Below are positions 5,643 through 43,799 of a DNA stretch of 64,000 bases, one piece after another (the first letter of the stretch is position 1; each line of letters opens with the position of its first letter). Source of the stretch: Bacteroidetes/Chlorobi group bacterium MS-B_bin-24 (GTDB taxonomy: Bacteria > Bacteroidota > Ignavibacteria > Kapaibacteriales > UBA2268). A program made the translations under genes and the position numbers. The DNA lies in NCBI GenBank assembly GCA_003731685.1, contig RCNO01000003.1, positions 6,780 through 70,779 on the forward strand, in the 5' to 3' direction. A model generated the notes under the pieces. It did not search any database, was not told where the DNA came from, and saw only the letters and a program-made list of their open reading frames with translations.

Positions 5643-5669
5643 AAATATTAAAAATAAATTGGTGTAAAA

Positions 5670-8600
5670 ATGCAAGCAAAGCCAATTCCAAAAAAAGGTT
5701 TTCGGAAAGTTATGATTAAGCTGGCTTCCCCGGATTCTATACTTGAACGCTCTCGCGGGGAAGTTACCAGACCAGAAACTATTAACTATCGTTCTTATCG
5801 ACCAGAAAAAGATGGTTTATTTTGTGAGAGAATTTTTGGTCCCGTAAAAGACTGGGAATGTGCCTGCGGGAAATATAAACGAATTCGATACAAGGGAATA
5901 ATTTGCGACCGTTGCGGTGTCGAGGTTACTCAAAAGACCGTTCGCCGAGAGCGGATGGGTCGTATTATGCTTGCAACTCCTGTTGTGCACATTTGGTTTT
6001 TGAGAAGTTTGCCCAGCAAAATTGGTGCGGTTCTTGGTTTATCGACCAAAGATTTGGAAAAAATAACATATTACGAAACTTATGTAGTTGTTAATCCCGG
6101 CCGGTTCCCATTCAAAAAATACGACCTTCTTTCGGATGTAGAATACCAGAACATTATGAGCCAAATTCCCGAAGAGGAGAAGTATCTCGATGATGACGAC
6201 CCGAACAAATTCGTTGCTTTAATGGGCGGACAGGCTATTAAAGAGCTATTGAAGCGGGTCGACGTCGAAGATGAATATTACCGATTACGTCAGGAGATGC
6301 GAGATGAGACCAACCTACAGAAGAAACAGGAATTGTTGAAGCGACTTAAGGTTTTGGAGGCATTTCTACCGGACGAAAAGACTGACGAACCAATCAACAA
6401 GCCCGAGTGGATGGTGCTCGATGTTATCCCGGTTATACCGCCAGACCTTCGACCTTTGATACCACTCGAAGGCGGTAGGTTTGCTGCTTCGGATTTGAAC
6501 GATTTGTATCGCCGGGTTATTATTCGCAACAATAGATTAAAGCGATTAATTGATATAAAAGCTCCGGGCGTAATTATCCGAAACGAACAGAGGATGTTGC
6601 AAGAAAGCGTTGATGCTTTGTTCGATAGTTCACGGAAAGCCACGAAGACCGAAGCTACTCGACCATTAAAATCCCTTGCCGACGCATTGAAAGGCAAACA
6701 AGGACGGTTCCGTCAGAATTTGCTTGGTAAGCGTGTGGATTATTCTGGCCGTTCGGTTATCGTTGTTGGTCCAGAATTGAAGATGCACGAGTGTGGCTTG
6801 CCGAAAGATATGGCTGTCGAATTGTTTAAGCCATTTATTATTAGGAAGTTAATCGAGCGGGGCTATGTCAAAACCGTTAAAAGTGCCAAGAAAATGGTCG
6901 AGCAAAAACGGACCGAGGTTTGGGATATCCTTGAGAAGGTAATCGAGAACCATCCCGTATTACTCAACCGCGCTCCGACACTTCACAGAGTTGGTATTCA
7001 GGCATTCCAACCAAGACTAATCGAAGGAAAAGCAATTCAACTACATCCGTTGGTTTGTACAGCGTTCAACGCAGACTTCGACGGCGACCAAATGGCTGTG
7101 CACGTTCCGCTAAGTTGGGAGGCACAGCTCGAGGCTTTGCTTTTGATGCTGGCTCCGCATAACATTATGCATACTCAAAATGGCGACCCAATTGCTGTTC
7201 CTTCGCAAGATATGGTCTTGGGAATCTATTACATTACAAAAGCCAAATCGGGCGTAAAAGGCGAAGGCAAGTTGTTTAATTCTCCCGAGGAAGTGATTAT
7301 TGCATACAATAACGGCGCAGTTGACTTGCATGCTAAAATCAAAGTGAGAATGGACGGCAAATATGTCGAAACTACAACTGGCAGAATTTTGTTTAACCAG
7401 ATTGTGCCGAAAGAACTTGGATTTATCAATGAATTGTTGACAAAGAAGAGATTGCGCCAAATAATTGGTTATTGCTTCCGAATTGCAGGGCTGGCTACAA
7501 CAGTTGAATTTTTGGACAACTTGAAGCAAATGGGATTTGAATTTGCAACGCGTGGCGGTTTGTCGGTGGGTATTCCCGATGTAATTGTGCCAAAGGAGAA
7601 GTACGAAATTATCGAGCAAGCCCAAAAGCGCGTCGATGAAATCGAAAATGCTTACCAAAATGGTGTCATTAGCTTTGGCGAAAGATATAATAAGATTATC
7701 GATACTTGGTCGACAGCAACAAATCGTGTTGCGGATAAGTTGTATAATGAAATTGCCAAAGTATATCAAGGGTTCAATACATTCTGGATGATGCTTGATT
7801 CGCAGGCTCGTGGTTCCAAAGAGCAGATACGACAGCTTGCTGGGATGCGAGGTTTGATGGCAAAGCCTCGTAAATCGTTGACTGGTTCAACTGGTGAATT
7901 AATTGAGAACCCGATTCTTTCTAATTTCAAAGAAGGATTGTCGGTGCTTGAATATTTCATTTCCACACACGGTGCAAGAAAGGGACTTGCCGACACCGCT
8001 TTGAAGACCGCCGATGCTGGTTATCTAACTCGACGCTTGCACGATGTTGCCCAAGATATTATCATTACCGAAGTAGACTGTGGCACAATTCGTGGTGTTA
8101 ACACTACTGCTTTGAAGGAAGGCGAAGAGGTTAAAGAAACTTTGTACGAAAGAATTCTTGGTAGGGTTGCACTTTGGGATGTTGTTAATCCGTTGACCGG
8201 CGAGGTCCTTGTCAAGGCTGGAGAATTGATTGATGAGGAGATTGCACAAAAGATAGAAGAATCACCAGTCGAAGAAGTTACAATCCGAAGCGTTTTGACT
8301 TGCGAATCACGTCACGGAGTTTGTGCAAAATGTTACGGACGGAATCTTGCAACAGGTAAACTTGTGGATGTTGGCGAAGCAGTTGGGACAATTGCGTCGC
8401 AGTCAATTGGCGAGCCGGGTACTCAGCTGACCTTGAGAACATTCCACACTGGTGGAACTGCATTACTGATAACGAGCCAGTCCTCTGTAACAGCAAAATT
8501 CGATGGTGTAGTGCAATTCGAAAATGTCCGAATTGTAACCTACGAGGAAGATGAAGAGGAAGTTCAAGTTGTTGTGTCCCGAAGTGGTGTTATAAATATC

Positions 8601-9950
8601 GTTGAACCTGAAAGCAACCGAGTTTTGACCAAATACGATGCTATGTATGGTGCAGTTTTGAAGGTTCGCGACGGCGAGCAAGTCAAAAAAGGTCAACTTT
8701 TGTACGAATGGGACCCATACAATGCTACGATTATTACGGAAGTTAGTGGTAGGGTTCGTTTCAAGGATATGATTCACAATGTTACTTATCGTGAGGTTAA
8801 TGATGAACAAACCGGACATATTACGAAGGTTGTAATTGAATCACGAGATAAAAATAAGCAACCTACGATTGAGATTCTTGACGACGAAGGCAATGTGCTT
8901 CGTTCCTATTCTATCCCCGTTAAGGCCCAATTAAGAGTAGATGAGGATGAATATGTTGGTGTTGGAACTGCACTGGTGAAAATCCCACGAGATTTGGGTC
9001 GTATGCGTGATATCACTGGTGGTTTGCCTCGTGTAACGGAATTATTCGAAGCAAGGGCACCGCAGAATCCTGCTATCGTTTCCGAAATCGATGGTATTGT
9101 TACCTTCGACAAAGTCAAGCGTGGACAAAGAACGATTTTGGTTACTTCGCTCGATGGGAAAACAGTGCGGGATTACAACATTCCGTTTGGGAAATACATC
9201 CTTGTTCAAGATGGGGATTTCGTTCGCGCTGGCGACCGCCTGACCGATGGAGATATAAACCCGCACGATATACTTAGAATCAAAGGACCGCACGCTGTCC
9301 AAGAATACTTGGTTAATGAGATCCAAGAAGTTTATCGAATGCAAGGTGTTAAGATAAACGACAAGCATATTGAGATTATCGTTCGTCAGATGTTGCAAAA
9401 ATATAAAATTTCCGACCCGGGCGATTCCCGCTTCCTTGAAAATGATTATGTCGACAGAATCCGTATTCTCGACGAGAACGAGAAGTTGAAGAAGCAAGTT
9501 GTTATTACGGATAAGGGTGATTCGAAGTTTAAAGTCGGGCAGATAGTAAGCAAGGACAAGTTCCGCGAGGTTAACCAAGATTTGCGAAAGAAAGGCAAGA
9601 AAGTAGCCCAAGCCCGACCTGCTGAACCGGCGATAGCCGAGCCTGTCCTGTTGGGCATCACCCAAGCTTCGTTGGAGACCGACAGCTGGCTTTCGGCTGC
9701 GTCGTTCCAAGAAACCACGCGTGTTCTTTCCGAAGCCGCCGTCGAAGCCAAGGTGGATTATCTTTATGGCTTGAAGGAAAACATTATTCTTGGTCAACTC
9801 ATTCCCGCTGGCACAGGCTTGAAACATTATCAAGATATGATAGTTAAAAGTAAAGTAGGGAATATATTTGCCGAAGAGATTGAATTGCCACCGACCGTTA
9901 TTCAAAGGGCTACCCCAATTGAACCATCGCGGGAAATCGAATCGTTGTGA
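5670..9950 (+). CDS. rpoC: DNA-directed RNA polymerase subunit beta'
   Basis: 1426-aa ORF with the N-terminal zinc-binding Cys cluster ([23 protein letters not shown]) and the catalytic NADFDGDQM motif. It directly follows rpoB. Confidence 0.98.
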
Positions 9951-9992
9951 GAAATATAATTTTTTCGGAGGTTAATTATTTGAATTATATGG

Positions 9993-10040
9993 GCGTAGCA
10001 ATGAAAATGAAAATTGCTACGCTCATTTTAATGTTTTTAC
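9993..10040 (+). terminator. Rho-independent terminator after rpoC
   Basis: Perfect 10-bp stem GCGTAGCAAT (9993-10002) / ATTGCTACGC (10013-10022) with a 10-nt loop, then TCATTTTAATGTTTTT. Confidence 0.6.
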
Positions 10041-10155
10041 AATAATTGATAATGTTTCCGAAACAGAATTTTTAGAAATTTGCTTAAAATTAACATAGAT
10101 TAAAAATATTTGTTGTTTGAAACCTTGAAATTTTTGTGAACAATTTGTTTTGTTT

Positions 10156-12249
10156 ATGGACCATATTTATAATTTAAGTTTAATAAGGAATATAGGGATT
10201 ACCGCTCATATTGATTCTGGTAAGACCACACTGAGCGAAAGGATATTGTATTACACTGGGAAAATACACCAAATTGTTGAGGTGCGCGATAAAAGCGGAG
10301 CCGGACCCACTCTCGATGCGATGGATTTGGAAAGAGAAAAAGGAATTACAATTCAATCTGCTTCGACTTATTTTAAGTGGAAAGATTATCATACAAACTT
10401 AATTGATACACCCGGGCACATAGACTTTACAGTAGAGGTTGAACGGGCTTTGCGAGTTCTCGATGGTGCGATACTTGTGTTGTGTGCTGTTGCTGGTGTG
10501 CAAAGCCAAACTATTACTGTGGACCGGCAGACTCGTCGCTACAATGTGGCACGGATTGCGTTCATCAACAAAGTAGATAGGTCGGGTGCCAATCCCGATA
10601 AAGTCTTACAGCAGATGAAGGAGAAATTGAACCTTAGGCCTGTGTTGGTTACAATGCCTATTGGGCTCGAAGATAGCTTTGCAGGGGTGGTCGACCTTTT
10701 GAAAATGAAAGCGGTATATTTCGAAGGAAATAATGGCGAAATTGTTGTCGAAAAAGATATTCCCGATGAGCTTATAGAAGAAGCAACCTTCCGACGGCTA
10801 CAACTTGTTGAAACACTGGCTGATTTTGATGATGAAATTGCTGAACTATATCTTGCCGACGAGGAAGTGCCAACGGAGGTGATTATTCCTGTGCTACGCC
10901 GCTTGACAATTTCGCATCTTGTTACCCCCGTATATGTTGGCTCGGCAAAGAAGAACAAGGGTGTTCAACCTTTGCTCGATGGAGTGGGTATGTTCCTGCC
11001 AAGCCCCGATGAGCGAGAAAACGAAGCCTTCGATTTAGATAATAGCGAAGCGAAGGTGAAATTGTCCTGCGATATTGATAAGCCTTTTGTTGGCTTGGCA
11101 TTTAAACTCGAAGATGGTCGCTTTGGGCAGTTGACTTATATGAGGATTTACCAGGGCAAGGTTAGGAAAGGCGATGTAATTTATAATACGAAGAGCAAGA
11201 AGAAGATTAAAGTGCCAAGAATTGTAAGGATGCATGCACAAGAGATGCACGATATCGAAGAGGCTTATGCTGGAGATATTGTAGCAATGTTTGGTGTTGA
11301 ATGTTATTCAGGTGATACTTTTACCGATGGTACGGTGAATTATTCCCTGCAATCTATGTTTGTGCCTACACCAGTGATTGAGCTTTCTGTTGCACCGAAA
11401 GAGAAGACCACGCTTTCGAACTTCTCGAAAGCATTGAATAGATTCCAAAAAGAGGACCCAACATTTCAGGTTATGCGCGACGAGGAAACTGGCGAAACGA
11501 TAATAAAAGGTATGGGAGAACTCCATCTGGAGATTTATATCGAAAGAATCAAAAGAGAATACAATTGTGAAGTAGTGGTTGGGAAAACCAAGGTTGCGTA
11601 TCGCGAGACAATCACTCGTAGAGCGGACTTTAATTATACCCACAAGAAGCAAACGGGGGGAGCAGGACAGTTTGCACGCGTTGGTGGTTATGTCGAACCG
11701 ATACCAGCGACCGAAGGTAAAGAACATGAATTTGTCGACCAAGTTGTTGGTGGAGTAATAGCCCGAGAATTTATCCCGGCTTGCGATAAAGGATTTCAAG
11801 AGCAATTGAAGGAAGGCATTTTGATTGGGCAACCAGTTGTTAATGTGCGAGTTGTTTTGAATGATGGACAAACACACCCTGTCGATTCATCGGAACTTGC
11901 TTTTAAGCTTGCATCGAAATATGCATTGAAAGAAGCACTTGCAAAGGCGGGACCTGTGATTTTAGAACCAATTATGAAGTTGGAAGTAACAGCACCCGAA
12001 GAGTTCCAAGGAGTGATTATTGGACAAATTAACCAAAGGCGTGGAATAATTATGAACACGCGAATTGATAATGGCTTTGTAGTTATCGAAGCCGAGGTAC
12101 CATTGAAGGAAATGTTTGGGTATTCTTCGGATTTGCGTGGGGTAACTCAAGGCAAAGGGGAGTTTACGATGGAGTTCCTTAAGTATTCTTCCGTGCCCAA
12201 AAGCGTGCAGGATGAATTAATCGAAGAATATCGAAAGAGTAAGAAATAA
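10156..12249 (+). CDS. Elongation factor G paralogue (mitochondrial EF-G1 / spd-EFG1-like), intact domain IV loops
   Basis: G motifs [14 protein letters not shown] and NKVD are present. Strings such as [28 protein letters not shown] and [14 protein letters not shown] recall mtEF-G1. The domain IV loops [11 protein letters not shown] and [14 protein letters not shown] are intact. The start could be ATG 10156 or the tracked TTG 10150. Confidence 0.9.
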
Positions 12250-31837: not shown

Positions 31838-31870
31838 AAAATGTGTGTTAAACAATTTGAAGAGGTTCTT

Positions 31871-33835
31871 ATGTTCAACGCATTTACGAAAAAAGCAATC
31901 TTAATCGGATTGACTTTCGCTGCGTTAGTTGGTATCTACTTTGGATGTAAATCATCCAAAGAAGTTGTAAGTGGTGATGTTGCAAAAGCAGTTTATGTTC
32001 CCCCCGGAAGTTACGACGAGTTTTATCTATTTACCTCCGGGGGATTTAACGGGCAGGTAGGTGTGTATGGGCTTCCCTCGGGTAGGCACTTCAAAACCAT
32101 TTCTGTTTTCTCGCAAAATCCAGAAACTGGGTATGGCTATACCGAAGAGACCAAGCCAATGCTTATGACATCTTATGGGTTTATACCTTGGGACGATTCC
32201 CCCCATCCAGAACTATCGATGACCGATGGCGTACCCGATGGACGCTTTTTGTTTATTAATGCGAACAATACTCCTCGAGTTGCCAAGATTGATTTGCGTA
32301 CCTTCGAAACGACAGAAATCATCGAAATACCCAATGCAGCAGGAAATCACGCCTCGCCTTTTGTAACAGAAAATACTGAATATATTGTGGCTTCAACAAT
32401 GTTTAGCATTCCAATTCCACAGGCGGATGTTTCGATTTCTTCTTATAAGGAAAACTTTAAAGGGACAATTAGTTTTATTGCGTTAGACCCCAAGACAGAA
32501 AGAATGAATCTGGCTTTTCAGATTTTAGTTCCCGGATTTGATTACGACCTTGCTCACGCTGGCAAAGGTCCATCGCACGATTGGGCATTTTTCACTTGTT
32601 ATAATACTGAGCAAGCTAATACTCTGCTCGAAGTTAATGCATCGAAGAACGATAAAGATTTCATTGCCGCTGTCAATTGGAAATTGGCTGAAAAATATGT
32701 ACAGGAAGGCAAAGCAAAAAAAATGAATGTGGAATATTACCATAATGTTTATGATGAAAAGAAACATATGGCTACAAGCGAAGTAAAAACCGCAGTCTTA
32801 GTGCTCGAACCAAAGGATTGTCCGGGTATGATCTATTATCTACCAACTCCAAAATCTCCACACGGTGTAGATGTAGACCCAACAGGAGAATACATTGTCG
32901 GTGGGGGCAAGCTTGCTACAGTTATTCCTGTACATTCATTTTCTAAAATGTTAAAGGCTATCGAAAATAAGCAGTTCGACGGAGAAATCAACGGAATCCC
33001 AATTTTGAAATATGAAGCGGTGATGGCTGGTGAAGTTCAAAATCCCGGGCTCGGTCCACTGCATACTGAATTCGATGGCAAAGGTTATGCCTATACTTCG
33101 TGCTTCGTTTCATCCGAAATAGTAAAATGGAAACTTGGCACTTGGGAAGTTGTCGATAGAATCCCTGTATATTATTCGGTTGGACACCTTTGCATACCCG
33201 GAGGAGATAGCAAAAAGCCTTGGGGTAAATATGTTGTTGCATTGAATAAAATTACAAAGGACAGATATTTGCCCACAGGACCGGAACTTACTCAATCTGC
33301 ACAATTGATTGACATAACTGGTGAAAAAATGAAGATGTTGCTCGATTTCCCAACAGTTGGAGAGCCACATTATGCTCAGTCTATTCCAGCAGAAATACTA
33401 ATGAAAAATAGTGCCAAGATTTACAAACTCGAAGAGAATCAGCATCCTTATGCTGTTTTGAAAGAAGCCGATGCCCGAGTGGAACGTAAAGGGAACGAAG
33501 TTCACATTTATATGACCGCTATTCGTAGCCACTTTGCTCCCGATAATATCGAAGGTATTAAAGCTGGCGATGTTGTTTATTTCCATGTAACAAATCTTGA
33601 ACAAGATTGGGATATTCCTCATGGATTTACAATTAAAGGCTTAACAAATGCTGAAATGTTGATAATGCCTGGGCAAACAAAAACAATAGTATGGAAACCA
33701 ACTAAACCAGGGGTGTATCCATTTTATTGCACTGACTTTAGCTCCGCTCTGCACCAAGAGATGCAAGGATACGTCCGAGTTTCGCCTGCAAATGCCAATG
33801 TTCAGATAAGCTACAACACAACAGGGAAAAAATAA
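31871..33835 (+). CDS. nosZ: Nitrous-oxide reductase NosZ, clade II (Sec-type signal), with two non-canonical metal-ligand positions
   Basis: Propeller plus cupredoxin architecture, with motifs GNHASPF, KSPHGVDV, GLGPLHTEFDG, GEPHYAQ, DIPHGF and YCTDFSSALHQEM. The N-terminus MFNAFTKKAILIGLTFAALVGIYFGC has no twin-arginine. I chose the start at ATG 31871 (GAAGAGG upstream). The tracked ATG at 31841 is also possible. Confidence 0.9.
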   Translation: MFNAFTKKAILIGLTFAALVGIYFGCKSSKEVVSGDVAKAVYVPPGSYDEFYLFTSGGFNGQVGVYGLPSGRHFKTISVFSQNPETGYGYTEETKPMLMTSYGFIPWDDSPHPELSMTDGVPDGRFLFINANNTPRVAKIDLRTFETTEIIEIPNAAGNHASPFVTENTEYIVASTMFSIPIPQADVSISSYKENFKGTISFIALDPKTERMNLAFQILVPGFDYDLAHAGKGPSHDWAFFTCYNTEQANTLLEVNASKNDKDFIAAVNWKLAEKYVQEGKAKKMNVEYYHNVYDEKKHMATSEVKTAVLVLEPKDCPGMIYYLPTPKSPHGVDVDPTGEYIVGGGKLATVIPVHSFSKMLKAIENKQFDGEINGIPILKYEAVMAGEVQNPGLGPLHTEFDGKGYAYTSCFVSSEIVKWKLGTWEVVDRIPVYYSVGHLCIPGGDSKKPWGKYVVALNKITKDRYLPTGPELTQSAQLIDITGEKMKMLLDFPTVGEPHYAQSIPAEILMKNSAKIYKLEENQHPYAVLKEADARVERKGNEVHIYMTAIRSHFAPDNIEGIKAGDVVYFHVTNLEQDWDIPHGFTIKGLTNAEMLIMPGQTKTIVWKPTKPGVYPFYCTDFSSALHQEMQGYVRVSPANANVQISYNTTGKK

Positions 33836-34025: not shown

Positions 34026-34601
34026 ATGAAAAAAAGTTCAAAGATATTATTGTTGGTTAGTTCATTAATTCTTATTGGAATTTTTTTCTTTCCGCTTTGG
34101 ACAATCGACTTGCAAGCTCCGCAATACCCCGAAGGACTTACAATGGGTAGCTGGATTAACAAAATATCGGGAGATCTGAAAATAATAAACGATTTGAACC
34201 ATTATGTAGGAATGAAGGAAATCGTACCCGATGCTATTCCAGAGCTCAAGTATATGCCCTTCATTGTTGGTTTTCTAATTGTTTTTGGTCTTGTCAATTT
34301 CTTTTTAGGGAATAAAAAATTAGTTTGGGTTTGGATTATTCTTTTCGTTCTTTTAGGGGCCATTGGTCTTTATGACTTTTATATGTGGGAATATGATTAT
34401 GGCCACAATTTAAATCCAAATGCTGCAATTAAAATTCCTGGAATGGCTTACCAGCCCCCTTTGATTGGTTCGAAGCAAATGCTCAATTTCCATGTTGACT
34501 CTTATCCATCAATAGGGTTTGTTATAATAGCAGTTTCTATTCTTTTAGCCATTTTAGCTATATATTTGAGTAGAAATGTTGAACATAAACAGGAGGGGTA
34601 A
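34026..34601 (+). CDS. Integral membrane protein, NosB-like (gene immediately downstream of clade II nosZ)
   Basis: 191 aa with 4 predicted hydrophobic helices. Its position after nosZ matches the membrane protein described as nosB in clade II clusters. I recognised no diagnostic motif. Confidence 0.5.
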   Translation: MKKSSKILLLVSSLILIGIFFFPLWTIDLQAPQYPEGLTMGSWINKISGDLKIINDLNHYVGMKEIVPDAIPELKYMPFIVGFLIVFGLVNFFLGNKKLVWVWIILFVLLGAIGLYDFYMWEYDYGHNLNPNAAIKIPGMAYQPPLIGSKQMLNFHVDSYPSIGFVIIAVSILLAILAIYLSRNVEHKQEG

Positions 34602-34605
34602 TATA

Positions 34606-35073
34606 ATGAATTTTCTTTTGTTGATTTCTGTAATTGGATTGTTATTCTTTGGATGTTCACGAGGTCCCGAACCAATTGATTATGGTAAGGATGCGTGTGC
34701 TGCTTGCAAGATGACAATAATGGATAATAAATATGCAGCGGAAATAGTAACGAAAAAAGGGAAAGTTTATAAATTCGATGCAATAGAGTGCTTGTTTAAT
34801 TTCAAGGCAAAAAATTTAAAGGAAGAGGATATATTTTCCGAGTGGGTATGCGATTTTTCGGACCCCGGTAAATTGATTAATTTAAGGAAGGCATATTTCC
34901 TTCATACCGAAGCTTTCCAAAGCCCGATGGGACTGGATGTTCTTGCTGTAGCCACCAAAGATAAAGTTAAAGAGATTCAGACTAAGTATGGCGGACATAT
35001 TATGAATTACAATGAGGTTCGGGACTTTGCAATTCAAAGAAAAATGATGAATGAGATGGAAATGAAACATTAA
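34606..35073 (+). CDS. nosL: Copper chaperone lipoprotein NosL
   Basis: Lipobox LLFFGC and a NosL-like core (IDYGKDACAACKMTIMDNKYAAEIVTKKGKVYKFDAIEC). I moved the start to ATG 34606 after AGGAGG. The tracked start at 34576 overlaps the upstream gene. Confidence 0.85.
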   Translation: MNFLLLISVIGLLFFGCSRGPEPIDYGKDACAACKMTIMDNKYAAEIVTKKGKVYKFDAIECLFNFKAKNLKEEDIFSEWVCDFSDPGKLINLRKAYFLHTEAFQSPMGLDVLAVATKDKVKEIQTKYGGHIMNYNEVRDFAIQRKMMNEMEMKH

Positions 35074-35081
35074 AAAGAAGT

Positions 35082-36341
35082 ATGGAAAAAATGAGAATGT
35101 TTTTTAGACTTTGGAGTCTAGTTTTTATACTTTTGCTATATCCTTTGCTGAGTTATTCTGCTCGGACTTATTTGATTTCAAATGAAAAGGAACTAATAAA
35201 CACATTGCGAATAGTCGCCGATGGAGATTCCATTGTTGTTAAGCCGGGGAGGTACTTAGTTGATAGTTTGGTGATTCGCAGGTCAATTAGTTTGATAGGG
35301 ATAAACTTTCCGGAGATAATTGGAAACAAAAGGGATGAAGTGATAACTATCCGTGCCAATGGGGTACTGGTTAAAGGGTTAAAAGTCAAAAATGCGGGTA
35401 TTAGTTTTCTTCGCGAAAATGTCGCAATAAGATTCGAAGAAGTTAATGGGGGCGTTGCAGAAGGCAATATTTTGGACAGCAATTTTTTTGGCATTTATAT
35501 TTCAAAATCTCAAAACTGTGTTGTAAAGAACAATGTGATAGTTGCTTATAACAGAACCGAAACATTTTCTGGGAACGGCATTCATCTTTGGTATTCAAAA
35601 AATATTACTATTATAGGGAATAAGATTCAAGGACATAGAGATGGAATTTACTTTGAGTTTGTTAAACATGCGCTTGTAAAAGGGAATTATAGCAAAGATA
35701 ATCTTCGCTATGGTCTTCACTTTATGTTTTCCGATAGTTGTGGTTACATCGAAAACACTTTCGAAAGCAACGGTGCTGGGATTGCGGTTATGTATACCAA
35801 AAATGTTACAATTAAATCGAATCGTTTTATCAATAATTGGGGTTCCGCTTCTTTTGGTTTGTTGCTTAAAGAGTTGACCAACTGTTTGATAGAGAACAAT
35901 CATTTCGAGAAAAATACTAATGGACTTTATTTGGAAGGTTCAAATCGTATTACAGTGAAACGGAACAATTTTATTCGGAATGGTTGGGCTATCAAATTGA
36001 TGGAAAATTCAATGGAAAATTACTTTACCGATAATAACTTTGTTGGAAATTCATTTGATGTGCTTTCGAACAACAGAACTACTTACAATACTTTTTTTAG
36101 AAACTATTGGAGTCGATATACAGGATTCGACTTGAATCGTGATGGTTATGGAGATGTTCCCTATCGCCCTGTCTCCTTTTTCTCAATTATAGTCGAAAGA
36201 CAACCTAATGCTTTGGTTTTGTTGCATAGCCTTTTTGTGGGTTTACTTAACTTTGCCGAAAGTATTATTCCATCGCTAACGCCAATGAATTTATTTGACC
36301 CAGAACCAAGAATTAAGAGTTTTCCAATAAGTTTATCTTAA
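35082..36341 (+). CDS. nosD: Periplasmic parallel beta-helix protein NosD
   Basis: 419 aa with a signal peptide and repeated beta-helix turns carrying NosD-like blocks (GNGIHLWYS, RDGIYFEF, RYGLHFMFS, GAGIAVMYT, DLNRDGYGDVPYRP). Confidence 0.88.
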   Translation: MEKMRMFFRLWSLVFILLLYPLLSYSARTYLISNEKELINTLRIVADGDSIVVKPGRYLVDSLVIRRSISLIGINFPEIIGNKRDEVITIRANGVLVKGLKVKNAGISFLRENVAIRFEEVNGGVAEGNILDSNFFGIYISKSQNCVVKNNVIVAYNRTETFSGNGIHLWYSKNITIIGNKIQGHRDGIYFEFVKHALVKGNYSKDNLRYGLHFMFSDSCGYIENTFESNGAGIAVMYTKNVTIKSNRFINNWGSASFGLLLKELTNCLIENNHFEKNTNGLYLEGSNRITVKRNNFIRNGWAIKLMENSMENYFTDNNFVGNSFDVLSNNRTTYNTFFRNYWSRYTGFDLNRDGYGDVPYRPVSFFSIIVERQPNALVLLHSLFVGLLNFAESIIPSLTPMNLFDPEPRIKSFPISLS

Positions 36342-36352
36342 TTAATTGAACA

Positions 36353-37072
36353 ATGGTTGAAATTCAAAATTTATCGAAAAGATTTGGGAGATTTGAAGTT
36401 TTAAAAGAGATTAACGCAAATTTTAAAAGCGGGAAAATTACGGCAATTGCTGGTCCTAACGGTTCGGGTAAGACTACGCTTATCAAAATAATTTTAGGTT
36501 TGGTGAAAGCCGATAGTGGGAAAGTGTATGTCTTCGGTGAACCTATTAACGGCGTTTGTAGTTATCGCCAAAAAATAGGATATATGCCCCAAATTGCCAA
36601 TTACCCCGAAAATTTGACCATTTCTGATATCATTAAACTCATTAAGGAACTAAGAAATGTTCGTGGGAATATCGAGGAAAAATTCATTAGAGAATTCAAT
36701 TTAGAGAACGATTTGAACAAGCCAATAAGGACACTTTCGGGTGGTACGCGACAAAAAGTTGGGGCAGTTCTCTCCTTGATGTTTGACCCAAGTGTTTTAA
36801 TCTTCGATGAACCAACTGTTGGGATGGACCCTGTTGTGAGCAGCCGATTCAAAGAAATTATGCTCGAAGAAAAACAAAAGGGCAAAGTCATAATTATTAC
36901 CTCCCACGTTATGAGCGAAATCGAGGAGCTTGCCGACGAAATTCTCTTTCTTTTGAATGGGAAGGTATATTTCAGTGGCTTAATCAGCGAATTGTTGAAT
37001 GCTCAAAACGAGACTAAATTGGAGCGTGCCGTTGCCAAGATTTTAGAAAATCAAACAATTTTGGATGTTTAA
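36353..37072 (+). CDS. nosF: ABC transporter ATP-binding protein NosF
   Basis: Walker A GPNGSGKTT, signature LSGGTRQKV and Walker B LIFDEPT. It directly follows nosD. Confidence 0.88.
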   Translation: MVEIQNLSKRFGRFEVLKEINANFKSGKITAIAGPNGSGKTTLIKIILGLVKADSGKVYVFGEPINGVCSYRQKIGYMPQIANYPENLTISDIIKLIKELRNVRGNIEEKFIREFNLENDLNKPIRTLSGGTRQKVGAVLSLMFDPSVLIFDEPTVGMDPVVSSRFKEIMLEEKQKGKVIIITSHVMSEIEELADEILFLLNGKVYFSGLISELLNAQNETKLERAVAKILENQTILDV

Positions 37073-37087
37073 CAATTCAGGTGTTCT

Positions 37088-37513
37088 ATGATACACATTA
37101 AATTTTTCGATTGGTTTGAAAATCATATTAATATTGCCTATTCGCTTATAAGAATTTTTCTCGGCTTTGCGTTGTGTATACGAGGTCTTTTGTTTATGTT
37201 TGACCCACAGACATTGACCAATCTTGCTGGCGAACCCCAAAATTTTTGGATTTTTGCTTATACCTCTGTGGGGCATCTTATTGGTGGTTTTCTTCTAGGA
37301 ATTGGCTGGTTCGTTCGGCTTGGTGCTTTAATCCAAATACCAATATTACTTGGAGCAGTTTTTACTATCCACTTACGTGTAGGACTGCTAACCTCTGGAC
37401 AATCGCTTGAACTTTCGGTGCTTGTTCTTTTTCTCCTGGTTGTTTTCTTTTTGTTTGGTGATGGTGGCATAACAATCAAAAGCATTTTCAAGAAAAGCTC
37501 TGTTACCAATTAA
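37088..37513 (+). CDS. Small four-helix membrane protein, DoxX-like
   Basis: 141 aa with four hydrophobic segments and a pattern (LIRIFLGFALCIRG...HLIGGFLLGIG...) that resembles the DoxX/DoxD family. The assignment is by eye only. Confidence 0.5.
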   Translation: MIHIKFFDWFENHINIAYSLIRIFLGFALCIRGLLFMFDPQTLTNLAGEPQNFWIFAYTSVGHLIGGFLLGIGWFVRLGALIQIPILLGAVFTIHLRVGLLTSGQSLELSVLVLFLLVVFFLFGDGGITIKSIFKKSSVTN

Positions 37514-37518
37514 ATTCA

Positions 37519-37911
37519 ATGCGGATTGCCTTTATTACATATGTGTTAGGGGTTCTATCATATTTTATAACTATAAATGCGAATCTTGTCGCATACTTTG
37601 AATATTTGGTCAATTATGATTTCATAGTGCAAAACCTTTGTGTGCAAAAAGATGAACCTATCAACACTTGTCACGGACATTGCCATTTGCGAAAAAATTT
37701 GGAGAAAGTAGAGGAAAATAATGGAACGAAAGAAAGAAAAAATGTAGAGTTGAAAACTAATGTCAAGATAGAAAATCATCGTTTAACATCAACAGTTTGC
37801 AATTTAATACCGAACATTACTTCCCTGATTTTTTACAATTTTAATGTCAATTACTTGATTAAACCTTTTGTTGAAAAAAACGATCCCCCTCCAAGGCAGT
37901 TTTCATTTTGA
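37519..37911 (+). CDS. Hypothetical N-terminally anchored protein with Cys/His cluster
   Basis: 130 aa with one N-terminal hydrophobic helix, then NLCVQKDEPINTCHGHCHLRKNL and a C-terminal DPPP. It starts 5 nt after the DoxX-like gene and lies upstream of the receptor gene. Confidence 0.55.
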   Translation: MRIAFITYVLGVLSYFITINANLVAYFEYLVNYDFIVQNLCVQKDEPINTCHGHCHLRKNLEKVEENNGTKERKNVELKTNVKIENHRLTSTVCNLIPNITSLIFYNFNVNYLIKPFVEKNDPPPRQFSF

Positions 37912-38017
37912 GTTAAAATTCTAACTCACATATTTAGCGTTTTTCTGTTGGGATAACATTTGAATTATTTTTAAAAACTTATGTAAATTTTTTGATAAAC
38001 AATAAAAGGGGGATGTT

Positions 38018-39856
38018 ATGAAAAAATTATTAATTTTTCTTTTCCTTCTTCCATTTGTGTCTTTTGGTGAGGCAAAAGATACTTTAAAGACATATAAAAC
38101 AAGCGAAGTGGAAATTATATCTCGTCGTGAAATCCAGTTTGTAAAACTTCAAGATTATGGTCCGGGTTATAGCAGCGAACTATTAAATCGGAATGGTTAC
38201 CAACTGATTCGCCGCGGATTGAGCTTTACGCAAGACATTTATTCCGATGGGTTTAAGAAAGGTGATATTCGAGTTGTTATTGATGGGGAATATTATCATA
38301 ATGCTTGTCCAAATCGTATGGATGCCCCTGCAACAAGAGTGAATCCGGTCGACTTGTCGGAGGTTGAGATAACCAAAAGTACGAGTTTATTAAGCACTGG
38401 CTTATACGGAAAAGTTGAGTACCATAGAACAAAACTGGAGAAGCCGCTTAGGTTCAAATCCTTTGTCAGCGGTCAAGTCGGTGCAAATTCAGAATACGAT
38501 GTAAGTTTTTCTGCCCAATCACATTGGACAAGTATAAGTGCCCGATTTTCTCAAGGGATTCCTTATAAGAATGCAAAAGGTAATAGTTTTAGGGACCTTT
38601 ATAGGTATAAAGATAATTATAAATTTTCATTTGGAAACATTGGGATTAGAAAACTTTTACCGGAATTAAATTTAGAAGCAGGCTTTAATTTTTCCTACGC
38701 AAAAGATATTTCCTTCCCCTATTTGATGATGGATGAAAGAAGCAGCAAAGTATTTAGTGGTTATTTACAATATAAAGGATATAAGGCATATTTGAATTAT
38801 ACTGACCATTTAATGAATGATGGATTGCGAGAGAATGCAATGGGTATGGAAACACGGGCTAAAAACATTACCACTGGAATTAAAGGCGATTTCTTTGAAT
38901 TTGTCTATCGGAATTGGAATGCGGATAATGTTATAATGCAAATTTCAAACAAAATGCTACCAAATGTCGACCAGTTTGCATTAAATCTTGCTTCCGATTA
39001 TTCACTTGGCTTTGTGAAGTTATTTTTTAAAGGGGGAGTGAATTATCTTCGCTATAAAGACGAATCGCGAAAGGCATTTTTCGAGTCGCTTTATCCCGAT
39101 GCAAAGACAGGACGAATTTTCATTTCTGGAGGTCTTAGCGCAATAATTGGGCATCAATTCTCCGAAAAACTTCTGTGGTCAGTTCTTCCAGAAATTGCAA
39201 CAGATGCGCCAGAGCCTGAAATGCTTTTTCTTGCACTCGTTCGGCCTATGAACAAACCCGATTGGAGCGGTAATCCAACTCTGAAACAACCGATAAGAGC
39301 TACTTTGCGAACATCGTTGCAAACAGATTTCTTAACCCTTGAGCTTTTTGGAAATTATGTTTTGAATTACGTTGATATTGTAGTTAAAAAGAAAGAAATG
39401 AAAAATGCAATGACCTACAACAACGTAAATGCAATCATAGCTGGGGCAAATTTGAAATTTAACTATAAGTGGCTGACCACAGAACTTTCCTACCTTTGGG
39501 GAGAAAATGAGGACAATAAGAAACCGCTTGCCGAAATTGTGCCACTTTCAATTTCTTCCAAAGTGGAAATTCCGATTGTCGAAAATCTTTCCGTCTTGCT
39601 AACCCACAGGTGGGAAAACGCACAAAAGAGAGTTAATCCCGATTTGAAGGAATTTTCCACTCCGGCTTGGAACACACTGGGTTTGGGGCTTGTTTACTCG
39701 TTTAGTTGGATACATTTCGATTTACAAATACAAAATCTTCTCAATCATAATTATTACAGATTTCTTTCGTTTTCGAGGAACCCATTTTCCGCTGGTTTGC
39801 CAGTTTATGAGCCGGGTCGTGTATTTATGCTAACAGTTTATTTCAATAAGAATTAG
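38018..39856 (+). CDS. TonB-dependent receptor-like outer-membrane protein (OprC/NosA-like candidate copper channel)
   Basis: 612 aa with a signal peptide and a plug-like N-terminal region (...LIRRGLSFTQDIYSDGFKKGDIRVVIDGEYY...). The remainder is rich in alternating aromatic beta-strand patterns. It contains C97-PNR-M101 and H264-L-M266. Confidence 0.65.
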   Translation: MKKLLIFLFLLPFVSFGEAKDTLKTYKTSEVEIISRREIQFVKLQDYGPGYSSELLNRNGYQLIRRGLSFTQDIYSDGFKKGDIRVVIDGEYYHNACPNRMDAPATRVNPVDLSEVEITKSTSLLSTGLYGKVEYHRTKLEKPLRFKSFVSGQVGANSEYDVSFSAQSHWTSISARFSQGIPYKNAKGNSFRDLYRYKDNYKFSFGNIGIRKLLPELNLEAGFNFSYAKDISFPYLMMDERSSKVFSGYLQYKGYKAYLNYTDHLMNDGLRENAMGMETRAKNITTGIKGDFFEFVYRNWNADNVIMQISNKMLPNVDQFALNLASDYSLGFVKLFFKGGVNYLRYKDESRKAFFESLYPDAKTGRIFISGGLSAIIGHQFSEKLLWSVLPEIATDAPEPEMLFLALVRPMNKPDWSGNPTLKQPIRATLRTSLQTDFLTLELFGNYVLNYVDIVVKKKEMKNAMTYNNVNAIIAGANLKFNYKWLTTELSYLWGENEDNKKPLAEIVPLSISSKVEIPIVENLSVLLTHRWENAQKRVNPDLKEFSTPAWNTLGLGLVYSFSWIHFDLQIQNLLNHNYYRFLSFSRNPFSAGLPVYEPGRVFMLTVYFNKN

Positions 39857-39945
39857 TTTTTTTTACTTCGGGAACGGAAATTCAAACAGCGAAGAAGGGG
39901 ACAATCCCGTTTATTTCAATAAGAATTAGTTTTTTTTACTTCGGG
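39836..39945 (+). repeat. Perfect 37-bp direct repeat (two copies, 73-bp period) duplicating the receptor gene 3' end
   Basis: GTTTATTTCAATAAGAATTAGTTTTTTTTACTTCGGG is read at 39836-39872 and again at 39909-39945. Copy 1 contains the last 6 codons plus the stop codon of the 38018-39856 gene. Confidence 0.9.
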
Positions 39946-39975
39946 GCTTGCCAATTCTTGGCGAGCCCCATTTTG
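39943..39975 (+). terminator. Rho-independent terminator
   Basis: 12-bp stem GGGGCTTGCCAA (39943-39954) / TTGGCGAGCCCC (39958-39969) with one G-U pair and a 3-nt loop, then ATTTTG. Confidence 0.7.
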
Positions 39976-40014
39976 CGATTTATACCTTAAATTTGTTGTT
40001 TTATCGAGGCAAAA

Positions 40015-40803
40015 ATGAATTTTGTTTTTAAGATTTTGAAGATAGAATTAAATAATGTAATCAAAAGCCGTTGGTTTTTCTTCTTTTTTGGCTTTTTCTT
40101 TCTTGTCTCCTATGCATTGTTATCGTTTGAGGACAATATTCAGAAAAGTTTATTAAGTCTTTTAAACTTGGTGATTTACCTTGCACCATTAATAACGCTG
40201 ATTTTTGGGACTATGTATTTTTACAATTCCCAGCCTTACATCGAGATGATGCTTAGCCAACCCATTCCCCGAGCCTCATTGTTTGTTGGCTTATATCTTG
40301 GAACTTCAATCCCGTTAATGTTGAGTTTTATTTTGGGGCTATTCCTTCCTTTTTTATTGTTTTCGGATATTTTAGCTTACTTAAATCTTTTCTTAATCCT
40401 ATTATTAATTTTAATTCTTCTTACGCTTTCTTTTGTATCAATTGCTTTTTGGATATCAACGGAAATCGGTGATAAAGTAAAAGGTTTGAGTCTTTCGATT
40501 TTGATTTGGCTGGTTTTTGGCATAGCATTCGATGGTTTAATTCTTTTTATTACTTTTCTTTTCTCGGATTATCCTTTGGAGAAAATCTTAATTGGCTTAA
40601 CTGTTTTAAATCCAATTAACCTTTCTCGCACTATTTTTGTTCTTAATTTTGAAATCTCCGCGCTAATGGGTATCACTGGTGCAGTATTTAAAAAGTTTTT
40701 TGGCAGTTCATTGGGAACTTTTGTCTCTTTGGGCTCAATGTTGTTTTGGATTGTAATCCCGTTTCTTTTTGGGTTAATTGGCTTTAAACGAAAAGATTTT
40801 TAA
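40015..40803 (+). CDS. nosY: ABC-2 type permease NosY
   Basis: 262 aa with about 6 hydrophobic helices and a NosY-like N-terminus (ILKIELNNVIKSRWFFFF). It lies in the nos cluster but is separated from nosF by 2.9 kb. Confidence 0.75.
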   Translation: MNFVFKILKIELNNVIKSRWFFFFFGFFFLVSYALLSFEDNIQKSLLSLLNLVIYLAPLITLIFGTMYFYNSQPYIEMMLSQPIPRASLFVGLYLGTSIPLMLSFILGLFLPFLLFSDILAYLNLFLILLLILILLTLSFVSIAFWISTEIGDKVKGLSLSILIWLVFGIAFDGLILFITFLFSDYPLEKILIGLTVLNPINLSRTIFVLNFEISALMGITGAVFKKFFGSSLGTFVSLGSMLFWIVIPFLFGLIGFKRKDF

Positions 40804-42006: not shown

Positions 42007-43257
42007 ATGGTGATAAAAAAACTTAAAATATCGAACTTTAAAAGTTTCGATGAGTTAGAAATCGAATTGAGTAGGTTCAATGTATTAATTGGTGCCAATG
42101 CATCAGGGAAGTCAAATTTTACACAAATTTTTAGGTTCATAAGAGATATAATATCTCAGGGCTTGAACAATGCTATTTCTTTGCAAGGTGGCATAGAGTA
42201 TTTTAGGAATATTAACATAGGTTCGGCAAAAAATTTTTCATTAGAAATTGTTTCGGATGAGAAATATGGAATTGGAATAAGAGGAGAAGACAAAAAGGGT
42301 TATTTTCTAAAAACATTTGAAACCGCTTATAAATTGGCGTTAGAGTTCAAAAAGAAGGGGGAAAAATTTGGAATTGCTGATGATGTGTTGAATCAAAAGT
42401 TCGAAATTTTTGAAGTGGAGTTTAATGAAGAAAACTTCAAAGAAAAAGGGAAAGTTGGGGCTGGTGAATTATTTATCTCGAATGTGGGAGGGAATCTGAA
42501 AGTTGATTTCAACCTTCCCAATGGAATAATAATTGATGAAAATTTCATACTACCACCATTTATAAAAGAACGGGGTTTAAAATCCTTTCAAATTCTTCTT
42601 GAAATAACCCCTTTTCTTATGGTTCCACCCTTTTTCAAAGACATATTGATTTGCGATTTTGACCCCAAATTCCCCAAAAAGGCAGCACCAATAAGTGGAA
42701 AAGCAGAGATTGAAGAGGATGGAAGCAATCTTGCTATTGTTCTAAAAAATATACTTGAGAATAAAGACAAGAAAAGAAAACTATTCAATTTATTAAAAGA
42801 CTTGCTACCTTTTATTGATGATATTGATGTAGAAAAATTTGCCGACAAAACTTTGCTGTTTAAACTAAGGGAAGTTTATTCAACAAAAAACCGCTATATA
42901 CCAGCATCTTTGATTTCTGATGGCACTATACATTTAACAGCTTTAATTTTAGCTTTATATTTTGAAAAAAATAGTTTAACAATAATTGAAGAGCCAGAAA
43001 GAAATATACATCCGTATCTTATCTCCAAGGTTGTTGATATGATGATGGACGCTTCGCGAAAAAAGCAAATCATTGTTACAACCCACAACCCTGAAATAGT
43101 TAAATATGCAGGTTTGGAGAATATTTTGCTAATTTCTCGGAATAATGAAGGCTTTTCTGTTATCTTTAAACCCATCGAAAAAGAACAGGTTAAGATATTT
43201 TTACAAAATGAATTAGGGATAGATGATTTATATGTACAAAATCTTTTGGAGTTGTAA
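42007..43257 (+). CDS. ABC/SMC-fold ATPase (AAA_21/AAA_15-like), candidate defence ATPase
   Basis: 416 aa with N-terminal KISNFKSFDE...VLIGANASGKSN (Walker A), SDGT signature-like, LTIIEEPERNIHP (Walker B/D-loop) and VTTHNP (H-loop). There are long K/E-rich insertions between the lobes. Confidence 0.75.
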   Translation: MVIKKLKISNFKSFDELEIELSRFNVLIGANASGKSNFTQIFRFIRDIISQGLNNAISLQGGIEYFRNINIGSAKNFSLEIVSDEKYGIGIRGEDKKGYFLKTFETAYKLALEFKKKGEKFGIADDVLNQKFEIFEVEFNEENFKEKGKVGAGELFISNVGGNLKVDFNLPNGIIIDENFILPPFIKERGLKSFQILLEITPFLMVPPFFKDILICDFDPKFPKKAAPISGKAEIEEDGSNLAIVLKNILENKDKKRKLFNLLKDLLPFIDDIDVEKFADKTLLFKLREVYSTKNRYIPASLISDGTIHLTALILALYFEKNSLTIIEEPERNIHPYLISKVVDMMMDASRKKQIIVTTHNPEIVKYAGLENILLISRNNEGFSVIFKPIEKEQVKIFLQNELGIDDLYVQNLLEL

Positions 43258-43259
43258 TA

Positions 43260-43799
43260 ATGAGCCCCAAACAGCTGTTTATTTTTGTCGAAGGAGCCAA
43301 CGATGAAAGATTTTTTGAAAGAGTTGTAAAACCGAAATTACAGCAAAGATACAATGTAATAATCATTCATACTTATGCAGAAAGAAAGGATAAATACAAA
43401 AGGATTAATGCTTTCCTTCAAAGTATTGCGTCTTTAAAGGCTGAATATATTTTTGTTACAGACATAGACAATTCTCCGTGTATTACTGCCAAAAAAGAAG
43501 AGATTAGAAACAGAATTCGCGATATTGACGCAAATCGAATTTTGGTTGTTGTTAAGGAAATAGAAAGTTGGTATTTTGCAGGTTTAGATAATATTAGAAG
43601 TAAGAAGTTAAAAATTCGTCGCAACTTTGAAAATACTAATAATCTAACAAAAGAACAATTTAAAGCCTTAATTCCAAAAAGTTTTGATTCTGAAATAGAT
43701 TTTATGATAGAAATTCTAAATCTTTTTTCAATTGAAATTGCGAAGAACAAGAATGATTCTTTTAAGTATTTTCTCGAAAAATTTAATATTCAAGCTTAA
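43260..43799 (+). CDS. Small Toprim-like protein (DUF4276/RloB/AriB-like pattern)
   Basis: 179 aa. It has LFIFVEGANDERFFERV (Toprim Glu at codon 11, nt 43290-43292), FVTDIDN (DxD, nt 43461-43469) and VVVKEIESWYFAG. The ATG lies 2 nt after the ATPase stop (TAATAATG). Confidence 0.6.
   Translation: MSPKQLFIFVEGANDERFFERVVKPKLQQRYNVIIIHTYAERKDKYKRINAFLQSIASLKAEYIFVTDIDNSPCITAKKEEIRNRIRDIDANRILVVVKEIESWYFAGLDNIRSKKLKIRRNFENTNNLTKEQFKALIPKSFDSEIDFMIEILNLFSIEIAKNKNDSFKYFLEKFNIQA

Follow-up and report, generated by a model that had tools for sequence, protein, structure and literature searches.

A predicted copper-uptake cassette in a composite nosF–nosY insert of a clade II nos operon from Ignavibacteria

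Here we analyse the junction between nosF and nosY in the clade II nitrous oxide (N2O) reductase, or nos, operon of MS-B_bin-24 (Ignavibacteria), from a hot-spring population, as it stands in a 64,000-nucleotide (nt) stretch of contig RCNO01000003.1, referred to below as the window. The genes found at this junction probably form a composite accessory insert, the core of which is a self-contained two-gene copper-uptake cassette: a TonB-dependent receptor of the OprC/NosA type and a small protein, here named CH130, encoded directly upstream of it. Copper acquisition by the receptor is well supported by its predicted ligands and its modelled fold. We regard the cassette as useful to nos, yet not dedicated to it, and a functional tie to NosZ as plausible but not exclusive. 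A preliminary description of this DNA had placed three open reading frames (ORFs) on the + strand between nosF and nosY, with gaps of 15 nt (nosF–DoxX), 5 nt (DoxX–CH130) and 106 nt (CH130–receptor), and these coordinates hold exactly; its proposal that the three genes make up a single module does not, as the CH130–receptor pair is a widespread cassette with its own terminator, whereas the DoxX gene is separate from it. The features of the junction, with protein lengths in amino acids (aa), are these:

36353–37072, + strand: nosF, the ABC ATPase of NosDFY (PF00005, E 1.8e-27), directly 3′ of nosD; upstream edge of the insert
37088–37513, + strand: DoxX gene, 141 aa (PF07681, E 1.5e-7)
37519–37911, + strand: CH130 gene, 130 aa, encoding the small Cys-motif protein
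37912–38017, + strand: CH130–receptor spacer, 106 nt, with a Shine–Dalgarno sequence (AAGGGGG) before the receptor ATG
38018–39856, + strand: receptor gene, 612 aa, a predicted OprC/NosA-type TonB-dependent transporter
38306–38308 (C97), 38318–38320 (M101), 38807–38809 (H264) and 38813–38815 (M266), + strand: putative copper ligands, from the OprC alignment
39836–39872 and 39909–39945, + strand: exact copies of a 37-nt direct repeat, arising from a 73-nt insertion 3′ of the receptor stop codon
39943–39975, + strand: terminator, a 12-bp GC-rich stem-loop (39943–39969) followed by AUUUUG
40015–40803, + strand: nosY, the ABC-2 permease of NosDFY (PF12679); downstream edge of the insert

The receptor and its conserved partner

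When a profile of 27 receptor homologues was compared with the PDB, the best matches were all OprC (6FOK from P. aeruginosa, E 4.6e-19). The alignment places the segment ACPNRMD of the receptor on C143 and M147 of OprC and the segment DHLMD on H323 and M325; these four residues form the published copper site, with CxxxM in the plug and HxM in the barrel wall (PMC8610252), and the correspondence is residue for residue. All four positions are invariant in the 27-sequence alignment, and in a wider set drawn from several phyla C97 is retained in 78 of 79 sequences and M101, H264 and M266 in every one. An AlphaFold2 (AF2) model of the receptor (pLDDT 79.7, pTM 0.81) has a barrel of about 22 strands starting at residue 131, and its top Foldseek match is again OprC (6fok_B, E 5.9e-23, TM 0.70). 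More than 300 matches fall at E ≤ 0.001, and those listed are TonB-dependent transporters. The receptor has the general architecture of that class, a 22-strand barrel with an N-terminal plug, although the plug is weakly supported. A candidate TonB box, recognised by eye only, lies at residues ~28–36 (SEVEIISRR; family consensus L-x-x-VEI).

Some of the evidence counts against so simple an assignment. TIGR01778 (‘TonB-copper’), the sole NCBIfam match of the receptor, scores 68.6 bits, far under the cut-off of 472.45 bits, and aligns with the C-terminal third alone. The Pfam Plug match is weak (E 0.006), the Pfam barrel model does not recognise the protein, and in the AF2 model the plug region is low-confidence, with low pLDDT at residues 1–80. 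Identity to OprC and NosA is 16–18%, and the receptor is about 110 residues shorter (612 versus 723 aa). OprC and NosA are proteins of Proteobacteria encoded by genes unlinked to nos, whereas the receptor comes from Ignavibacteriota and is encoded inside a nos operon; its partner is CH130, in contrast to the PepSY_TM protein PA3789 that accompanies OprC. We read the receptor as a compact, very divergent copper transporter of the OprC/NosA type, predicted to work like OprC, and not as an equivalog. Established transporters of this type take up ionic copper, and copper represses their expression. Ignavibacteria, Melioribacteraceae, Kapabacteria and neighbouring phyla are rich in homologues of the receptor.

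Clustering of the genes beside the receptor in 80 genome loci of its family yielded a single conserved partner: CH130, a protein of about 127 aa encoded directly upstream of the receptor and present in 38 of the 74 loci with enough upstream sequence. In the window, CH130 has an N-terminal hydrophobic membrane anchor or signal sequence, the motif C41-x9-C51-x-G-x-C55-H-L and a PPP at residues 123–125, five residues before the stop. Family-wide, the motif is C-x8-9-C-x-G-x-C, usually then H-L, and PPP[KRQE] stands 2–6 residues before the stop; I36, C41, N49, C51, G53, C55 and P124 are invariant in 34 homologues. The last Cys and the PPP are separated by 63–71 residues (mode 67) of poorly conserved linker, and the AF2 model is helical and confident over residues 1–67 and disordered over 68–130. 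At E ≤ 1, the 34 members matched Pfam and NCBIfam models only in scattered chance hits, and none of them matched DUF2946 (PF11162) or a named small-protein family. More distant CH130-like genes, in loci L116, L164 and L118, likewise precede CxxxM/HxM receptors. As about half of the family loci lack CH130, and as the CH130 gene has decayed in the nos locus L162 (9538–10000; Cys motif and PPP tail gone, with DoxX, the 617-aa receptor and nosY intact), the protein is an accessory and no obligate subunit. In two other loci it is the receptor frame that is apparently interrupted (L004, ~5200–7120; L069, ~9886–11812), the first long ORF beginning ~780 nt downstream of the CH130 stop, perhaps because the genes are pseudogenes or are misassembled.

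Transcription and history of the insert

The cassette is read through from the nosZ promoter, and nosY is cut off transcriptionally. The stretch is found, identical to the window, in four microbial-mat metatranscriptomes. Two of them have one contig (31822/31889–39865) that reaches from nosZ to the receptor stop; in the remaining two, a contig at 37014–39865 holding DoxX, CH130 and the receptor has 2–3 times the depth of the nosD/nosF contigs. These RNA depths are contig-level values (from Logan contigs), flat along each contig. Across the hairpin that follows the receptor (fold z-score −3.1), RNA depth falls from 61 to ~3 and from 37 to ~3, with 0–4 beyond it, over nosY, compared with 12–61 upstream, whereas DNA depth is flat in four metagenomes (37/35, 76/76, 82/76 and 11/14.5). 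Because RNA depth drops and DNA depth does not, the terminator works in vivo and leaves nosY at least 10-fold less transcribed. Hairpins lie 3′ of the receptor in the window, in its sibling contig L161 and in loci L003 and L082, and are absent from the DoxX–nosY spacers of loci without the CH130–receptor pair, so the terminator came with the cassette. A sigma-70 promoter scan of 36800–40100 found no more sites than in shuffled sequence, and it missed the terminator because the U-tract is short. The contig at 37014–39865 begins within the 3′ end of nosF, which hints at an internal promoter or at differential mRNA stability.

The preliminary description had closed its module with this terminator and with a 37-bp duplication. 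Both exist, but the repeat is not part of any module. A roughly twofold DNA depth of the 37-mer shows that it is real, and the RNA contigs break at 39865 because of it; the 73-nt insertion that creates it occurs in mat contigs from both DNA and RNA and is missing from L161, so that it is a strain polymorphism. We also considered the repeat as an insertion scar of the cassette and rejected this, as the 73-nt insertion is strain-specific and is not in the sibling contig.

That nosF and nosY are normally adjacent, as the preliminary description had assumed, is borne out by related metagenome nos loci, in 70 of 75 of which the gap is below 250 nt (median 20 nt). A reverse scan with a NosY profile added 80 further nos loci, and those in which any gene separates nosF from nosY make up one clade (SH-aLRT 100). 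The eight loci of this insertion clade carry three kinds of insert:

L081, L084 and L086: DUF1858-DUF2249, COX1-like (421 aa), DUF59, COX1-like (151 aa), DoxX
L003 and L082: DUF1858-DUF2249, COX1-like (421 aa), DUF59, COX1-like (151 aa), DoxX, CH130, receptor
Window, L161 and L162: DoxX, CH130, receptor alone

A single clade (SH-aLRT 95) holds the nos-linked receptors; its sister group consists of non-nos Ignavibacterium receptors, and its branching mirrors the NosDFY tree. The cassette entered the nosF–nosY junction once, in the ancestor of a small clade. The simplest history is one seven-gene insert, followed by about three losses of the pair and one loss of the COX1-like set in the lineage of the window, which makes the supposed three-gene module the remnant of a composite region.

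DoxX is a separate, clade-specific resident of the junction, with an origin apart from the copper cassette. The protein scores 32.3 bits against a Pfam cut-off of 23.6 and has four hydrophobic stretches in its sequence. Its gene is present in all eight insertion-clade loci, with or without the pair, and a hidden Markov model of the window DoxX matches those loci alone among more than 160. Membership of DoxX in the cassette was therefore rejected: it is absent from all 79 other receptor-family loci and present in pair-less nos loci. Fellow members of the DoxX family include BufD1 of bufferin clusters and the DoxD/DoxX subunits of quinone-linked oxidoreductases. Like the window DoxX, BufD1 is a small four-helix membrane protein in a setting of periplasmic copper handling, but there are no MNIO or bufferin genes at the window locus, and, unlike BufD1 and DoxD, the window DoxX belongs to a lineage restricted to the nosF–nosY insert. 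BufD1 is dispensable for bufferin function (PMC11626156). DoxX may give quinol-linked redox support at this junction.

The genes that precede DoxX in the longer inserts (DUF1858-DUF2249, COX1-like of 421 aa, the Fe–S assembly protein DUF59 and COX1-like of 151 aa; 6258–9102 in L003) occur as the same four-gene set in L089 (46–2909), where they lie upstream of the nos cluster and without a receptor. Single COX1b-like genes are found near nosY in L109, L115, L126 and L133. The four-gene set may be an uncharacterised haem-copper-oxidase-like module associated with nos or with nitric oxide.

The tie to nitrous oxide reductase

The operon around the insert is a clade II nos cluster, with a Sec-type NosZ and nosL, nosD, nosF and nosY all on one strand. 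Its remaining genes are as follows:

31841–33835, + strand: nosZ, clade II (TIGR04246, a Sec-dependent model, 962 bits)
32201–32203 (H121P), 32399–32401 (R187M) and 33740–33742 (C634S), + strand: NosZ substitutions, discussed below
34026–34601, + strand: membrane ORF of 191 aa, between nosZ and nosL
34576–35073, + strand: nosL (NosL family match)
35082–36341, + strand: nosD (TIGR04247, 408 bits)

Cytochrome c, nosZ, the membrane ORF, nosL, nosD, nosF and nosY follow one another in the order of the canonical clade II (Sec-type) cluster of the Fibrobacteres–Chlorobi–Bacteroidetes (FCB) group, but nosF and nosY, adjacent there, are split here by 2.9 kb and a working terminator. Source annotations label nosY homologues ‘Cu-processing system permease’. 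Further downstream, an ATPase gene and a small-protein gene (42007–43799, downstream of rlmN) are also found in L161 and not in L162 (13851–14759), where rlmN directly precedes the next conserved gene, which fits a recent insertion of those two genes.

NosZ needs 12 Cu per dimer, and copper scarcity leaves it inactive. If the copper-uptake reading is right, the receptor would bind ionic copper at the cell surface and move it into the periplasm with TonB energy, and the lipoprotein chaperone NosL together with NosDFY would load the imported copper into NosZ. CH130 would bind or sense copper through its three invariant cysteines, as a periplasmic acceptor or as a leader like CruR of Bordetella. 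For the P. stutzeri protein NosA, an orthologue of OprC, such a role has a precedent, as it was required for a copper-containing NosZ in strain JM300.

Support for a link of this kind also comes from other nos clusters. Locus L116 encodes, in order, nosF, nosY, a Y1-transposase-like gene, a CH130-like gene, a receptor (TIGR01778, 269 bits), NosL (PF05573) and Fur. In L132, nosY is followed by a DUF6448 protein, a receptor and a NosL that is 53% identical to the NosL of L116. In L118 (6615–10902), Rrf2, fasciclin, a CH130-like gene, a tandem YtkA lipoprotein and a CxxxM/HxM receptor lie downstream of nosY, and in L149 (1239–2362) a ScdA/hemerythrin (RIC-type) protein and then a CH130-like gene do. 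The three-gene variant in L118 resembles the window in having the CH130-like gene first and the CxxxM/HxM receptor last, beside a nos cluster; it differs in the YtkA lipoprotein between them, and the window receptor belongs to a compact subfamily of 612–625 aa. Overall, an OprC-like receptor or CH130-like gene is near nos in 4 of the 34 nos loci whose downstream sequence reaches 3 kb or more, plus L149. Because the receptors of L116, L118 and L132 are only ~24% identical to that of the window, they are separate recruitments, and OprC-like receptors have come to clade II nos clusters on at least three further independent occasions. By our own rough estimate, the chance expectation of such juxtapositions is well under 1%, the loci not being phylogenetically independent. 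In L116 (2098–7635) and L132 (11580–14465), the OprC-like receptor, with its CPSRM and HxM motifs, is followed by a second NosL-family gene.

Weighing against a tie to nos are, first, the distribution of the cassette and the record of NosA. Only one of the 80 genome loci of the receptor family stands beside nos genes (L003), and no other copper gene recurs beside the pair among the 20 commonest neighbour clusters of these loci. The commonest neighbours are sulfur transport genes, cytochromes, DnaB, sugar enzymes and regulators, in local synteny only. The absence of the pair from L081, L084 and L086 implies about three losses within the insertion clade, and the requirement for NosA failed to reproduce in another P. 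stutzeri strain (PMC8610252). Second, the nos genes of this strain may be failing. NosZ carries H121P, R187M and C634S at positions that are invariant in 27 of 27 relatives; H121 is the first His of the CuZ His-His pair and C634 a CuA Cys. L161 keeps H, R and C at positions 121, 187 and 634, and the mutant nosZ allele is the one in the metatranscriptome contigs. The cytochrome c gene upstream of nosZ is frameshifted in the window, with one base fewer (~31456) than in L161, while the nosY of L161 lacks one base at the spot matching window position 40350 and is split into 119 and 148 aa. Two different frameshifts in siblings suggest either a recent relaxation of selection on nos or homopolymer sequencing errors. 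Between the window and L161, which are 98% identical, dN/dS (the ratio of non-synonymous to synonymous substitution rates) is 0–0.18 for the nos genes, 0.05 for DoxX, 0.06 for CH130 and 0.12 for the receptor; since it is still low for all genes, any decay of nos is recent. To judge from these substitutions and the cytochrome c frameshift, the enzyme served by the cassette may be dead in this strain, and the cassette’s present role there is probably general copper supply.

These observations are the substance of the alternative that stands up best, which we nevertheless consider unlikely: that a general copper-homeostasis cassette, serving for example cytochrome oxidases, is carried neutrally as a chance neighbour, has no tie to NosZ and may even harm NosZ maturation by terminating transcription before nosY. 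A single nos-linked family locus in 80, otherwise unrelated neighbourhoods, repeated loss of the pair, a more than 10-fold drop in nosY RNA at the cassette terminator, the occurrence of OprC in many non-denitrifiers, and purifying selection on a cassette whose neighbouring nos genes carry inactivating changes in this population are all as this alternative would have them. It accounts poorly, however, for at least three further independent juxtapositions and their low chance expectation, for the second NosL directly after the receptor in two of them, for nos-linked receptors being retained down to 53–54% amino-acid identity, and for the co-transcription of the cassette with nosZ. The preliminary description had inferred a dedicated copper route, and had named residence of the three families mostly away from nos or copper genes as a point against it. 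What survives is a copper-type receptor, co-transcribed with nosZ, nosL, nosD and nosF, whose type has been recruited to nos repeatedly. The families do lie in part as that point anticipated, and because of the one-in-80 linkage, the lack of copper neighbours and the roughly three losses, the cassette is neither a dedicated nor a required nos component.

Another copper enzyme is an improbable beneficiary. The pair might have fed the two COX1-like proteins encoded upstream in the ancestral insert, leaving the window as a remnant. In L003 and L082 the seven genes lie together as a single block, DoxX always stands between the COX1-like set and the pair, and CrtA-type transporters in Bordetella are dedicated to haem-copper oxidases (PMC12914433). 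Against this, the two sets part freely: the COX1-like set stands without the pair in L081, L084 and L086, and the pair without the set in the window, L161 and L162; L089 has the set elsewhere with no receptor; and the nos-adjacent receptors of L116, L118 and L132 have no neighbouring COX1-like genes. Least probable is the import of haem, zinc or a metallophore with the OprC-like motifs coincidental. In its favour, the haem receptors PhuR, ShuA and ChuA and the zinc receptor ZnuD are fold matches nearly equal to OprC and weak sequence matches as well, and several sources call homologues ‘iron complex outermembrane receptor’. Against it, such names (otherwise ‘hypothetical protein’) are generic automatic labels, the copper receptor is the only NCBIfam match, and each of the four OprC ligands has an exact counterpart in the alignment that hardly varies among 79 sequences from several phyla.

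CH130 and the meaning of the locus

The preliminary description had not recognised this gene combination as a described nos accessory set. An outer-membrane copper receptor as a nos accessory has a forerunner in NosA and is in principle nothing new; what the searchable literature does not describe is a TonB-dependent receptor placed inside the nos operon, in this phylum and with CH130 as its partner. The most novel point of the locus is the role of the CH130 family.

The closest parallel in organisation is found in Bordetella. CruR, a DUF2946 leader ORF, combines a CXXC motif with a C-terminal RAPP arrest motif at a fixed 45-residue spacing and controls a copper TonB-dependent transporter through its nascent chain (PMC9426467). 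In that mechanism, copper relieves a ribosome stall that is coupled to Rho termination in the spacer. The B. pertussis operon, cruR-crtA(bfrG)-bp2921, comprises that leader, the transporter and a PepSY_TM protein. As in the CH130 cassette, a small exported ORF of ~130–145 aa lies directly upstream of a copper transporter, and both small proteins join an invariant Cys motif to a near-stop proline motif through a poorly conserved spacer of fixed length. The details differ throughout: CX9CX3C(H) versus CXXC, PPP[KRQE] versus RAPP, and ~67 versus 45 residues. There is no detectable homology, and the transporters are of different families, the receptor being OprC-like whereas CrtA is not. The CH130 loci also differ from cruR in their intergenic spacers, mostly 33–100 nt with no evident Rho-utilization (rut) site. 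The CH130–receptor spacer has a median of ~60 nt in homologous loci, many measuring 33–50 nt, and in 35 such spacers we found no C-rich/G-poor (rut-like) tract, terminator or conserved hairpin. Short spacers that lack such elements make Rho-type attenuation less likely.

By analogy, we tentatively raise the idea that CH130 could be a CruR-like copper-sensing leader peptide, separately invented in a second bacterial superphylum; a role as a periplasmic copper acceptor is about as likely. In a leader, the three invariant cysteines of the nascent or just-inserted CH130 chain would sense copper, and the near-terminal polyproline, ~67 residues from the Cys motif, would stall the ribosome and so gate receptor expression. 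Whichever role it plays, a very large family in FCB-group bacteria, so far without annotation, may have CH130 as its founding member: the CH130 profile matches 7030 clusters (50% identity) at E ≤ 0.001, of which 3160 reach E ≤ 1e-10.

The locus bears on a question of wider interest. No biological sink for N2O other than NosZ is known, and the important consumers of the gas include clade II organisms such as Ignavibacteria. The idea that NosZ is fed by an outer-membrane copper importer has reportedly been disputed since the nosA work of 1989–91, and we know of no characterised copper importer in this phylum. The recurrent juxtaposition of OprC-like receptors with clade II nos clusters, together with co-transcription with nosZ, provides independent comparative support for a link between importer and NosZ, and supplies concrete, testable genes for it. 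The analysis also exposes a very large uncharacterised family of partner proteins that may regulate or assist copper uptake and, if the leader reading of CH130 is true, would place a nascent-chain metal sensor directly inside N2O-reductase operons.

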